Of a stretch of DNA of 64,000 nt, positions 15,001 through 18,000 are shown piece by piece; within the stretch, counting starts at the first letter, position 1, and each line of letters begins with the position of its first letter. Made by a program: the position numbers. The DNA is from Escherichia coli (GTDB taxonomy: Bacteria > Pseudomonadota > Gammaproteobacteria > Enterobacterales > Enterobacteriaceae), in NCBI RefSeq assembly GCF_041248615.1, contig NZ_CP158426.1. One strand, written 5' to 3'.

Positions 15001-18000
15001 TCCGTTGGAGCCATCTTTAAACACAATACCGTGACGAGTGTCGTCGGTAAGGAAACGACCATTAATTTGCACCAGCATGGTTACCGTATGGTTATTGGCA
15101 TCGACGCGCAGCGGTTGGCTGTTCGAAAGTTCGTCGTATTCCACTTTTGCCGCCGCATTCTCTTTTTGATCGCAGCCGCTAAGCCCGGCAACAGCCAGTA
15201 AGCAGAGTGCAGTCAGTCCTTTTTTCCATGACGCTGAATAATGTTGCAACATCGTTCTATCCTTCATTTTTTGGGTGAGTAAGTGGGCTGCGGCGCGAAG
15301 CAGACAGATCCACATGTTTGTGTCGAGCATAGAGTTTGGCGAGCTGGACGAGAATAAACAGCGCCAGGCCCGCCAGACAGAGTTGTAAAATAAAGCGCAG
15401 CGTAATGCCTTCATTGGCGAGATCGCTTGCCATCACGGTATAAATAACAATACCGGGCAGAGTCGTGAGTGCTGAAATAAGGGTATAAGGCCAGAAGGCG
15501 ATTGTGGTTAATCCGTAAGCGTAATTTTGAATATTGTAAGGAAACAACGGGATTAAGCGGGTCAGAATAAGAAAATCAATACCGTTACGCGCAATGCCTT
15601 TCTCAATGGCCTGGAAGGTATGGCTATGGCCAACGTATTTCAGCAGTAAATCACGTCCCAGCCAGCGCGCCAGCAGGAATGAGCACGAGGAGGCCAGCGT
15701 GGCGGCAATTAATGATAGTAGTGTCCCTAAGAGCGGGCCAAAAACTATTCCTCCAGCGATCACCAGTATGCTTCCTGGTAACAGAAAGAGGGTGGCAATG
15801 ATGAATAACAGAATATAGAGGCTATAACCGAACAATCCGCTCTGGCGAATGAGTGTCAGTAAATGAGGTAAATCGGTGAGCAGCTCGAATAAACCGAAAG
15901 CGTGGAAAGCGTAAATGACCAGCGCAAAAATAAGACAGGCAAAAAGAAATTTACGCTCAGCGTTCATTGTGGAGTTTCCTATATCAAACTTGATAATAGA
16001 GAAGTGGTCAGACAACTAAAAACGCAGTGACGGTATAACAAAGGGCGGCAGGCAACAAATCATTACTGACAGTTTGTTGATTTTTCTCAAGGTTAATTCT
16101 CCTGACCCAGTTTGAGCCAGGAGAACAGCTAAATTAGCGGCGGAAGGTCGCCCAGACGGGGGCGTGATCGGACGGTTTTTCCATGCTGCGGATTTCATAG
16201 TCGATGCCGGTTTCTACGCAACATTCTGCCAGCGGTTGGCTGGCGAGAAGCAGGTCGATACGCAGACCGCGGTTATCGTCAAAACCTTTTGAGCGGTAAT
16301 CAAACCATGAGAAACGATCGGCTGTTTGCGGATTCGCATGGCGGAAGGTATCGACCAACCCCCAGCTCATCAGTCTCTCCATCCATTCGCGTTCTTCCGG
16401 AAGGAAAGAGCATTTTCCGGTACGCAGCCAGCGCTTACGGTTCTCTTCGCCAATGCCAATATCCAGGTCGCCAGGACTGATATTCATATCGCCCATAATC
16501 AGCACCGGATTTTCACGCTTGAGTTCGGTTTCCAGGTAGTTTTGCAGATTCTGATAAAACTGCGCCTTTGCCGGGAATTTTATCGGATGGTCGCGGCTTT
16601 CACCCTGCGGGAAGTAACCGTTGATCACGGTGACATTACCCAGCGGTGAGGGGATTTCCGCCATAATAATCCGCCGCTGCGCCTCTTCGTCGTCACCGGG
16701 AAAACCGCGACGCACGGCAATCGGCGTCTCTTTGGTCAGCAGCGCCACGCCATAATGGCCTTTCTGCCCGTGATAAAACACGTTGTAGCCGAGCTTCGCC
16801 ACCTCTTCGAGTGGAAACATATCGTCATGAACTTTTGTCTCCTGCAGGCCAATCACATCCGGCTGGTGCTTTTCGACGATGGCTTCAAGCTGGTGAGGTC
16901 TGGCGCGCAGGCCGTTGATATTAAAAGAGACAAATTTCATAGTCGCTGCCATTTATTCAGATAAAGAGTGCGTGGATGGTAGCAGAATTTCGCTTTGCTT
17001 ACCGCCTGTTGTTAAGTGATTTGATCGATGGTTGTTAATGATGTCAACGATGGCGCAAAAAATGCCCGCTTTTGGTGCGCGCTGCGTCAGAATGGCGCAG
17101 TAATTTCCAGTAAATTTCGTCAATGATCACAATTCCAGAATTATATTTTACTTCTGCATAACATTGCGTTTTTTATTCTTTTTATTCACCCATATCGCAA
17201 ACGTATTCACTTTATATGCACTTTAAATGCATATGGTTTGGTTATAACTCCTTGATTTCCAGTTAGCCACCGCGGTTTATGCACTTTTATCACTGGCTGG
17301 CACGAACCCTGCAATCTACATTTACAGCGCAAACATTACTTATTATTAACATATAAATAACGAATTATTTACTGTAGAGGTCGCTATGTCTCAGCCAATT
17401 ACGCGTGAAAACTTTGATGAATGGATGATACCTGTTTACGCTCCGGCACCGTTTATACCGGTACGTGGCGAAGGTTCGCGCTTGTGGGATCAGCAGGGGA
17501 AAGAGTATATCGACTTCGCGGGTGGCATTGCGGTGAACGCGCTGGGCCATGCGCACCCGGAACTGCGTGAGGCGCTGAACGAACAGGCGAGTAAGTTCTG
17601 GCATACCGGCAACGGTTACACCAACGAGCCGGTACTGCGACTGGCGAAAAAATTGATCGACGCCACGTTTGCCGATCGCGTCTTCTTTTGTAACTCCGGT
17701 GCGGAAGCCAACGAAGCGGCGCTAAAACTGGCGCGTAAATTCGCTCACGACCGCTACGGCAGCCATAAGAGCGGTATCGTGGCGTTCAAAAATGCGTTTC
17801 ATGGTCGCACGCTGTTTACTGTCAGTGCGGGTGGGCAGCCCGCCTATTCACAGGATTTTGCGCCACTGCCGCCGGATATTCGTCATGCTGCATATAACGA
17901 TATTAACTCTGCCAGCGCGCTGATTGACGACTCTACCTGTGCGGTGATTGTCGAACCCATCCAGGGGGAAGGCGGTGTGGTGCCAGCCAGCAACGCATTT

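Follow-up and report, generated by a model that had tools for sequence, protein, structure and literature searches.

The xthA/astCADBE control region of an Escherichia coli chromosome carries the known σ54 promoter of astC and an overlapping −10 region

The 64-kb stretch of DNA analysed here (the window) covers the xthA/astCADBE locus of the E. coli chromosome. Positions 16941–17385 are, with a probability of about 95%, the divergent xthA/astCADBE control region, in which 17298–17313 is the known σ54 (RpoN) promoter, accompanied by a putative upstream NtrC enhancer, weak candidate ArgR sites and an overlapping −10 region (Table 1). The astCADBE σ54 promoter is already known and well characterised; in strain K-12 it was reportedly mapped by Kiupakis and Reitzer in 2002. 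The region is a positive control in that an earlier note, based on a reading of the sequence alone, found a real σ54 promoter at the right coordinates, while conservation and positional constraints recover an enhancer that is invisible by eye. A mildly useful by-product is the observation, across genera, of a conserved but sub-optimal −12 element, a rigid enhancer-promoter spacing and an overlapping −10 conserved to the same degree.

The longest ORF of xthA extends to 16952 and its annotated start lies 12 nt further in, at 16940. The intergenic region therefore spans 16941–17385 (445 bp); of the interval 16953–17385 given in the earlier note, the end stands and the start is moved to 16941. The G+C content of this spacer is 38%, in line with its description there as AT-rich. 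It is 100% identical to the spacer of several E. coli strains and differs from that of K-12 by four single bases (16994, 17193, 17269 and 17274), all of them outside the −24/−12 elements, both NtrC dyads and the −10. Three of the four are in poorly conserved stretches, while 17193 adjoins a weak ARG-like box. On the xthA side, transcription starts 29 nt upstream of the ATG (Kim 2012 supplement). The block ATGGTAGCAGAA in the promoter core is conserved among orthologues, and TACCAT as the putative −10 of xthA is our own inference from the sequence. A scan of the spacer and the astC leader against Rfam gave no credible match; a minus-strand resemblance to the mgtC leader was sub-threshold (21 bits, E = 0.1; gathering score 48) and was treated as chance.

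Table 1. Features of the xthA/astCADBE locus (window coordinates).
Feature	Position	Strand	Details	Basis
xthA CDS (exonuclease III)	16134–16940	−	divergent neighbour	annotation of identical strain C4 and of K-12
xthA promoter core	16969–16981	−	published start 16969; −10-like TACCAT (reverse complement of 16976–16981), C before it	
Weak σ54-like motif	17050–17067	+	ATGGCGCAAAAAATGCCC; overlaps NtrC-like dyad 1	low-stringency ChIP-seq peak
NtrC-like dyad 1	17063–17079	.	TGCCCGCTTTTGGTGCG; centre −253 from σ54 start; 3 mismatches to TGCACC-N4-TGGTGCA	
NtrC-like dyad 2	17083–17099	.	TGCGTCAGAATGGCGCA; centre −233; 3 mismatches to TGCACC-N4-TGGTGCA	
CpxR-like direct repeat	17100–17114	+	GTAATttccaGTAAA; second repeat alone well conserved	read from sequence
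Most conserved upstream block	17112–17148	.	AAATTTCG-N5-GATCACAATTCCAGAATTATATTT	at least 95% conservation across 80 orthologues
Putative ArgR-binding zone	17153–17243	.	weak ARG-box-like elements, with ATTCACTTTATATGCACT (17205–17222) as the best box	PWM, orthologues, phasing
Nearly invariant block	17276–17293	.	TTTATGCACTTTTATCAC; directly upstream of −24; ARG half-site TGCAY	orthologue alignment
σ54 promoter	17298–17313	+	−24 TGGCAC, −12 CTGCA; expected start ~17324	sequence, published ChIP-seq, orthologues
σS/σ70-type −10 region	17316–17323	+	CTACATTT; hexamer TACATT 17317–17322, C at −13	conservation, published start
astC 5′ leader	17329–17385	+	57 nt from published start G17329; Shine-Dalgarno GAGG 17377–17380	Kim 2012 supplement and sequence
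astC	17386–18606	+	first gene of astCADBE; astA from 18603, then astD, astB, astE	

The σ54 promoter reads TGGCACgaaccCTGCA on the forward strand and is embedded in ctggcTGGCACgaaccCTGCAatc. It is composed of TGGCAC (17298–17303), a 5-nt spacer (17304–17308) and CTGCA (17309–17313), which sets the GG (17299–17300) and GC (17311–17312) doublets at exactly the GG-N10-GC spacing. The single departure from the TGGCAC-N5-TTGCW consensus is a C for T at −15. The sequence, coordinates and spacing that the earlier note had given for TGGCAC-N5-CTGCA were all confirmed, as was its statement that the element lies at an appropriate distance from astC (88 nt before the ATG at 17386, in the same orientation, with an expected leader of 62 nt). 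The motif count by itself is weak, suggestive evidence because TGGCAC-N5-YTGCW, found once on the two strands of the 64-kb window, is expected 0.21 times from shuffled sequences and occurs at least once in 19 of 100 shuffles. With up to two mismatches to TGGCAC-N5-TTGCW there is no enrichment (38 matches in the window versus 41 expected). It is by its position, orientation and conservation that the promoter is more than a chance match.

Conservation was assessed in 80 orthologous astC loci (some counts are given out of 81 sequences) from Escherichia, Citrobacter, Salmonella, Enterobacter, Klebsiella, Raoultella, Kosakonia, Buttiauxella, Cedecea and other genera. The pattern TGGCA(C/T)-N5-NTGCA, with its GG-N10-GC spacing, is kept in all 80 orthologues at 87–92 nt before the ATG, and the N5 spacer between its two halves varies (GAACC, GAAGC, GATCG and GCCCT are among the variants). 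At −15 every orthologue carries C or G and none the consensus T; judged from these alignments, the conserved form of the −12 element is a sub-optimal one.

Published binding data point to the same element. The K-12 σ54 ChIP-seq peak OS17 upstream of astC contains the identical 17-mer CTGGCACGAACCCTGCA; the study predicts a σ54 start 62 nt upstream of the astC start codon and gives the promoter as flagged experimentally confirmed in EcoCyc (PMC4591121). A compilation of known σ54 promoters includes the segment from −88 to −71 relative to the ATG, equivalent to 17298–17315 in the window (PMC2831329). In Salmonella LT2 a σ54 ChIP-chip site, TGGCACGAATGCTGCAAT, is found at the orthologous position upstream of astC and expression is σ54-dependent (PMC3844500). 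An NtrC ChIP-seq peak was reported at astCADBE, its published interval mapping over the promoter (about 17291–17371 of the window) and not over the −253/−233 dyads (PMC4066584), and genomic SELEX (gSELEX) showed binding of both RpoN holoenzyme and NtrC to the astC/xthA spacer (PMC8743547). NtrC is described as the dominant regulator of astCADBE (2026 paper). Secondary literature presents astCp as a weak, naturally ArgR-assisted promoter, with ArgR accessory and not essential, names the σ54 promoter astCp2 and cites RpoS dependence of ast expression. The control by NtrC, ArgR and σS put forward in the earlier note is thus supported by NtrC ChIP-seq and gSELEX and, for ArgR and RpoS, by secondary sources.

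A −10 region of the σS/σ70 type follows the −12 element closely. Its TACATT hexamer is at least 95% conserved, and the 8-mer is CTACATTT, CTACATTC or ATACATTT in 78 of the 81 sequences. A C at −13 favours σS. Scanning 16900–17450 with the σ70 consensus yielded no −35 match for the TACATT promoter; the scan returned two sites versus 2.0 expected, neither placed to drive astC. The published astC start, 17329, is 7 nt downstream of TACATT (Kim 2012 supplement) and was measured in ammonium-replete medium (1 g/L NH4Cl). It is 17 nt from the GC doublet, versus the 11–13 nt of σ54 promoters, and about 5 nt downstream of the predicted start at ~17324. The earlier note had named an inconsistent mapped start as the observation that would speak against its promoter; the start found is offset by 5 nt, fits TACATT and does not refute the assignment. 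We read 17329 as the start of a second promoter of the σS/σ70 type because of the ammonium-replete medium and the fit to the conserved hexamer, and it fits a dual-promoter arrangement.

The same start could be taken to mean that astCADBE is transcribed solely from the TACATT promoter and that TGGCAC-N5-CTGCA is a chance resemblance. The mapped position does fit TACATT and not σ54, TACATT is conserved as well as the −24/−12 elements, and the motif count is not significant in 64 kb. However, σ54 binds exactly this motif in E. coli (ChIP-seq) and Salmonella (ChIP-chip), GG and GC persist in 80 of 80 orthologues despite the variable spacer, NtrC-like dyads are found at a fixed upstream distance and astCADBE is a member of the NtrC regulon. 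Moreover, 17329 was determined with 1 g/L NH4Cl, where NtrC is inactive, and the “confirmed” flag of EcoCyc implies that an rpoN- or glnG-dependent start near 17324 had already been reported. This explanation is extremely improbable, a chance match being rejected on the ChIP and conservation evidence, and we retain a σ54 promoter overlapped by a second one.

The NtrC boxes, which had not been located by eye, were given candidate positions by a consensus search combined with the orthologues (dyads 1 and 2 in Table 1). The TGC and GC positions of dyad 1 are at least 95% conserved. In the orthologues, the matches for dyad 1 gather at −252 to −254 (46/81) and those for dyad 2 at −232 to −234 (25/81). 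The two dyads are 20 bp apart here, or two helical turns, and the tandem spacing is 19–22 bp in the orthologues; their GC...GC positions are invariant, and dyad matches are almost absent elsewhere in the orthologue regions. Matches to the NtrC consensus with three mismatches are not enriched across the window, a single dyad being no better than chance, and the same holds for enrichment of the CRP consensus at three mismatches. The candidate NtrC and CRP sites rest, for this reason, on position and conservation and not on match quality. The two dyads share a helix face and lie over 100 bp from the promoter on its upstream side, which is the layout of an enhancer, and this putative assignment has good support from pairing and conservation.

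Dyad 1 overlaps ATGGCGCAAAAAATGCCC, which corresponds to a low-stringency σ54 ChIP-seq peak in the orientation of astC (Bonocora 2015 table S2). This peak, together with the GG-N10-GC spacing of the motif, could indicate a second functional σ54 promoter producing a long-leader ast transcript, but the ChIP signal is weak, the motif is off-consensus and even a relaxed form of it occurs in no more than 19 of the 81 sequences. The signal might instead come from cross-linking through the NtrC-σ54 loop, given the overlap with the dyad. We regard such a promoter as very unlikely and ATGGCGCAAAAAATGCCC as probably not functional in transcription initiation.

ARG boxes, likewise not placed by eye, were searched with a PWM built from 16 K-12 ARG boxes (training scores 8.4–22.3 bits), which places them weakly. 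The best box, at 17205–17222, scores 10.3 bits, within the training range, no other 18-mer reaches 6 bits, and the result is not significant versus dinucleotide shuffles. The pattern sought was one of paired 18-bp palindromes (WNTGAATWWWWATTCANW) 2–3 bp apart; partners 21 bp on either side of the 17205 box score below 0. A model drawn by eye, with full ARG boxes repeated regularly every 21 bp, is unsupported by the PWM scores and was discarded. In the orthologues the ARG-box scores are highest at the aligned positions 17205, 17153 and 17194. Within the putative zone itself, half-sites are enriched and five ATKCA half-sites are in helical phase (in a test designed after seeing the sequence).

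The most conserved DNA upstream, at 17112–17148, is fixed in position: in 78 of the 81 sequences it precedes TGGCA by 172–174 bp. It includes a CRP-like 22-mer at 17113–17134 (TTCGTCAATGATCACA, three mismatches) with one perfect half-site: relative to TGTGA-N6-TCACA, its core TTCGTcaatgaTCACA (17116–17131) matches in 5/5 positions of the right half and 2/5 of the left half, and its flanks are highly conserved. The 22-mer is a candidate CRP site on the strength of the CRP footprint reportedly described by Lu and Abdelal (1999). The assignment of GTAATttccaGTAAA to CpxR is tentative; according to a 2026 paper, which gives no position, RegulonDB has a CpxR site at astCADBE.

The conserved DNA between enhancer and promoter might then not be mainly an ArgR platform and could be bound by CRP (17113–17134), by CpxR (17100–17114) or by another protein (17125–17148 or 17276–17293). 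The PWM gives ARG boxes weak scores that by themselves fall short of significance, the two most conserved blocks (17112–17148 and 17276–17293) are poor as ARG boxes, the first of them has the perfect CRP half-site, and a CpxR site is said to be listed for the operon. On the other hand, secondary literature agrees that ArgR binds the region and boosts σ54 transcription, the orthologue scores peak at aligned 17153, 17194 and 17205, and the half-sites are enriched and in phase. Binding mainly by factors other than ArgR is possible and, on balance, doubtful. The two readings are mutually compatible.

In most of the 80 species, which represent over 20 genera, the NtrC-like dyads and the GATCACAATTCCAGAATTATATTT and TTTATGCAY blocks each hold a distance from the −24 element that is constant within 1–2 bp. 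The interval between enhancer and promoter could conceivably be a rigid stereospecific scaffold with ARG half-sites on one face, in which at least one conserved block (17125–17148, 17276–17293) may bind an additional factor or reflect a particular DNA shape that the loop formed with ArgR requires. We give this proposal a low likelihood, and existing footprinting papers perhaps explain it in part or wholly.

In the mechanism favoured for the ast region, σ54 holoenzyme binds the promoter as a closed complex, as shown by published ChIP-seq. Under nitrogen limitation, phosphorylated NtrC would occupy the tandem enhancer ~230–255 bp upstream (17063–17099, a position predicted from sequence and conservation), loop over and use ATP to open the complex, with transcription predicted to start near 17324. 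Weak ARG-box half-sites, tentatively placed on one helix face and rigidly spaced, would lie in between; through them, according to literature summaries, ArgR with arginine bound would shape the loop and “superinduce” transcription, like IHF at other weak σ54 promoters. The second, overlapping promoter (TACATT, 17317–17322; start 17329) would provide expression outside nitrogen limitation, e.g., in stationary phase. The ast operon is in this sense a textbook multi-input promoter, responding to nitrogen limitation via NtrC/σ54, to arginine via ArgR and to stationary phase via σS.

Compared with known systems, the element is the same locus as the astCADBE σ54 promoter of K-12, with an identical 17-mer and no functional difference. 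The ast region of Salmonella enterica has the same order of elements (NtrC-like dyads, GATCACA block, ARG-like elements, promoter), whereas its N5 spacer and ARG-like sequences differ from those of E. coli; CRP, NtrC and ArgR footprints on the Salmonella ast control region are said to have been described by Lu and Abdelal in 1999. glnHp2 resembles ast in being a weak σ54 promoter whose NtrC enhancer lies at a distance, with an architectural protein bound between the two (IHF at glnHp2). At ast the helper is instead arginine-bound ArgR, which adds a metabolite signal on top of the nitrogen signal, and the enhancer is further off, at about −233/−253. The enhancer of glnAp2, the archetypal NtrC/σ54 promoter, is at about −110/−140. 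As at ast, a GG-N10-GC promoter is preceded there by tandem NtrC dyads that share a helix face; however, glnAp2 is strong and needs no helper, whereas the ast dyads carry three mismatches each and the ast −12 element departs from the consensus T at −15.

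The elements of the xthA/astC control region are collected in the table. A segment of 551 bases round the promoter has matches in 5,424 of the 5,426 complete E. coli genomes, with full identity (100%) in several; xthA and astC are annotated beneath the match. The spacer differs from that of K-12 MG1655 at four positions (16994, 17193, 17269 and 17274), none of which touches the elements described here. An earlier note had delimited the region as 16953-17385. Its right edge holds; the left edge, drawn from the longest xthA ORF (starting at 16952, MAATMKF...), lies 12-13 nt inside the true spacer, as every annotation begins xthA at 16940. 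The xthA promoter has a conserved putative -10 sequence, cTACCAT (reverse complement of 16976-81). The C at its position -13 suits the RpoS dependence of xthA.

Coordinates of the features in the xthA/astC spacer and elsewhere in the window
Feature	Position	Strand	Sequence and remarks
NtrC-like palindrome	12165-12181		AGCACCATATTGATGCA; 2 mismatches
xthA	leftward from 16940	-	annotation of strain C4 (identical here) and K-12
xthA/astC spacer	16941-17385		445 bp, 38% G+C
xthA promoter	16969-16990	-	published start 16969, 29 nt before ATG at 16940
Weak sigma-54-like motif	17050-17067	+	ATGGCGCAAAAAATGCCC; overlaps NtrC-like dyad 1
NtrC-like dyad 1	17063-17079		TGCCCGCTTTTGGTGCG; 3 mismatches to TGCACC-N4-TGGTGCA
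NtrC-like dyad 2	17083-17099		TGCGTCAGAATGGCGCA; 3 mismatches to TGCACC-N4-TGGTGCA
CpxR-like repeat	17100-17114		GTAATttccaGTAAA
Distal conserved block	17112-17148		AAATTTCG-N5-GATCACAATTCCAGAATTATATTT
TATAAT without -35	17145-17140	-	perfect; within distal conserved block
Best ARG-like 18-mer	17205-17222		ATTCACTTTATATGCACT
Proximal conserved block	17276-17293		TTTATGCAYTTTT..C
Sigma-54 promoter	17298-17313	+	TGGCACgaaccCTGCA; GG 17299-17300, GC 17311-17312
-10-like TACATT	17317-17322		preceded by C; conserved as well as the sigma-54 elements
Conserved leader patches	17349-17355; 17364-17372		AACATAT; ATTATTTAC
astC	rightward from 17386	+	then astA, astD, astB, astE; annotation of strain C4 (identical here) and K-12
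Sigma-54-like match	53514-53529	-	TGGCATcccgcTTGCT; full GG-N10-GC, 1 mismatch

The ast sigma-54 promoter, with its GG-N10-GC spacing, is found exactly where the earlier note had placed it, and this reading is supported by ChIP-seq, ChIP-chip, gSELEX and conservation in 80 orthologues. The motif TGGCAC-N5-YTGCW has one match in the window, where shuffling predicts 0.21; one or more matches turned up in 19 of 100 shuffles. The count alone is thus weak evidence and the context carries the case. Matching of looser sigma-54 motifs across the window showed no enrichment. In K-12, sigma-54 ChIP-seq detected peak OS17 upstream of astC (motif CTGGCACGAACCCTGCA), with a start predicted at window position 17324, 62 nt ahead of the gene; according to the accompanying table, the promoter has experimental confirmation in EcoCyc (PMC4591121). 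It is also listed among known sigma-54 promoters at -88 to -71 from the ATG, equivalent to 17298-17315 (PMC2831329), and Salmonella LT2 ChIP-chip identified TGGCACGAATGCTGCAAT upstream of astC (PMC3844500). The spacer was hit by NtrC ChIP-seq (PMC4066584) and, in gSELEX, by both RpoN holoenzyme and NtrC (PMC8743547). The promoter is an already known feature. The match at 53514-53529, antisense within ihfA and just after pheT, may be one of many intragenic sigma-54 sites or due to chance.

The 80 astC orthologue loci fetched came from Escherichia, Citrobacter, Salmonella, Enterobacter, Klebsiella, Raoultella, Kosakonia, Buttiauxella, Cedecea, Kluyvera, Trabulsiella and further genera. Every one of them retains TGGCA(C/T)-N5-NTGCA, with its first base 87-92 nt ahead of the start codon and with free variation in the N5 bases; one locus was missed by the first regular expression solely through the base preceding TGG. 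The consensus T at position -15 is absent from all 80, which have C or G there, in keeping with the literature, where astCp is described as weak and naturally assisted by ArgR.

Genome-wide 5'-triphosphate mapping in K-12, in cells grown with 1 g/L NH4Cl, placed an astC start 57 nt upstream of the ATG (PMC3415461 and its supplement). This start, G17329, follows TACATT by 7 nt and the GC doublet by 17 nt. NtrC should be inactive at this NH4Cl concentration, and the growth condition and the distance from TACATT together fit the sigma-S/sigma-70-type promoter attributed to astCADBE in the literature. The sigma-54 element would be refuted by an inconsistent mapped start; the one at 17329 is read as belonging to the overlapping TACATT promoter and is compatible with the sigma-54 promoter and its predicted start near 17324. 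Orthologues have moderate ARG-like scores near 17340 in the astC leader, and an Rfam search of this leader found no known RNA element.

The earlier note had not placed NtrC boxes with confidence; we take the two NtrC-like dyads, 20 bp apart, as the putative NtrC enhancer. Matches to the consensus with three mismatches are no commoner in the window than expected (21 against 20.9). Relative to the sigma-54 start, orthologue matches occur almost exclusively at two positions, -253 and -233, give or take 1 bp, and this part of the alignment has its invariant columns at the TGC...GC positions. For astCADBE, Brown et al. give an NtrC ChIP-seq interval (U00096.2 1830021-1830101; PMC4066584) that maps to about 17291-17371, over promoter and leader and about 230-300 bp from the dyads; limited resolution, or cross-links formed through a DNA loop, may account for the offset. 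By coordinates counted from K-12, the window's best NtrC consensus match, at 12165-12181, is probably within the ynj ABC-transporter genes. The sigma-54-like motif at 17050-17067 corresponds to a low-stringency ChIP-seq peak (Bonocora 2015 table S2), and its relaxed form occurs in only 19 of 81 sequences.

ArgR sites in the ast control region are real according to the literature and weak by sequence, which explains why the earlier note did not confidently locate ARG boxes by eye. With a PWM rebuilt from 16 classical ARG boxes of K-12 upstream regions (carA, argF, argA, argG, argR, argD, argE/C and argI), the sole spacer 18-mer to reach 6 bits scored 10.3 bits, not significant against shuffles. 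ARG-like scores in orthologues cluster at aligned positions 17205, 17153 and 17194. Five ATKCA half-sites (17184, 17205, 17216, 17227 and 17279; 0.75 expected) are nearly in perfect phase on a 10.5-bp helix (R = 0.98), a test picked after viewing the sequence, and the phasing is only suggestive.

The distal block is the most conserved of the spacer (at least 95% across 80 orthologues), at a constant 172-174 bp before the -24 element TGGCA in 78 of 81 sequences. One CRP half-site within it is perfect and the other half poor, and the conservation of the block reaches 17 bp further than a CRP site would. The proximal block, directly upstream of the -24 element and almost invariant across genera, resembles a single ARG half-site and is centred at -42.5 relative to the 17329 start. 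RegulonDB is said to list ArgR, CpxR and NtrC sites for astCADBE (2026 paper). Mildly new, on comparative grounds, are the sub-optimal yet conserved -12 element, the enhancer-promoter spacing, which for most of the 80 orthologues is constant to 1-2 bp, and these two highly conserved blocks as candidate factor sites.

In the proposed mechanism, sigma-54 holoenzyme occupies its promoter as a closed complex, on the evidence of published ChIP-seq. Under nitrogen limitation, NtrC-phosphate would reach it through a DNA loop and open the complex; such action is established biology of NtrC, and we infer its placement at 17063-17099. Arginine-bound ArgR on the phased weak intervening sites would shape the loop and raise output, ArgR being described as accessory, not essential, and NtrC as the dominant regulator of astCADBE. 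The overlapping -10 would serve stationary-phase, sigma-S-dependent expression. The inferred order of elements agrees with that reported for the Salmonella ast control region, where Lu and Abdelal (1999) reportedly footprinted NtrC, CRP and ArgR, and where ArgR is said to separate the NtrC and CRP sites from two promoters.
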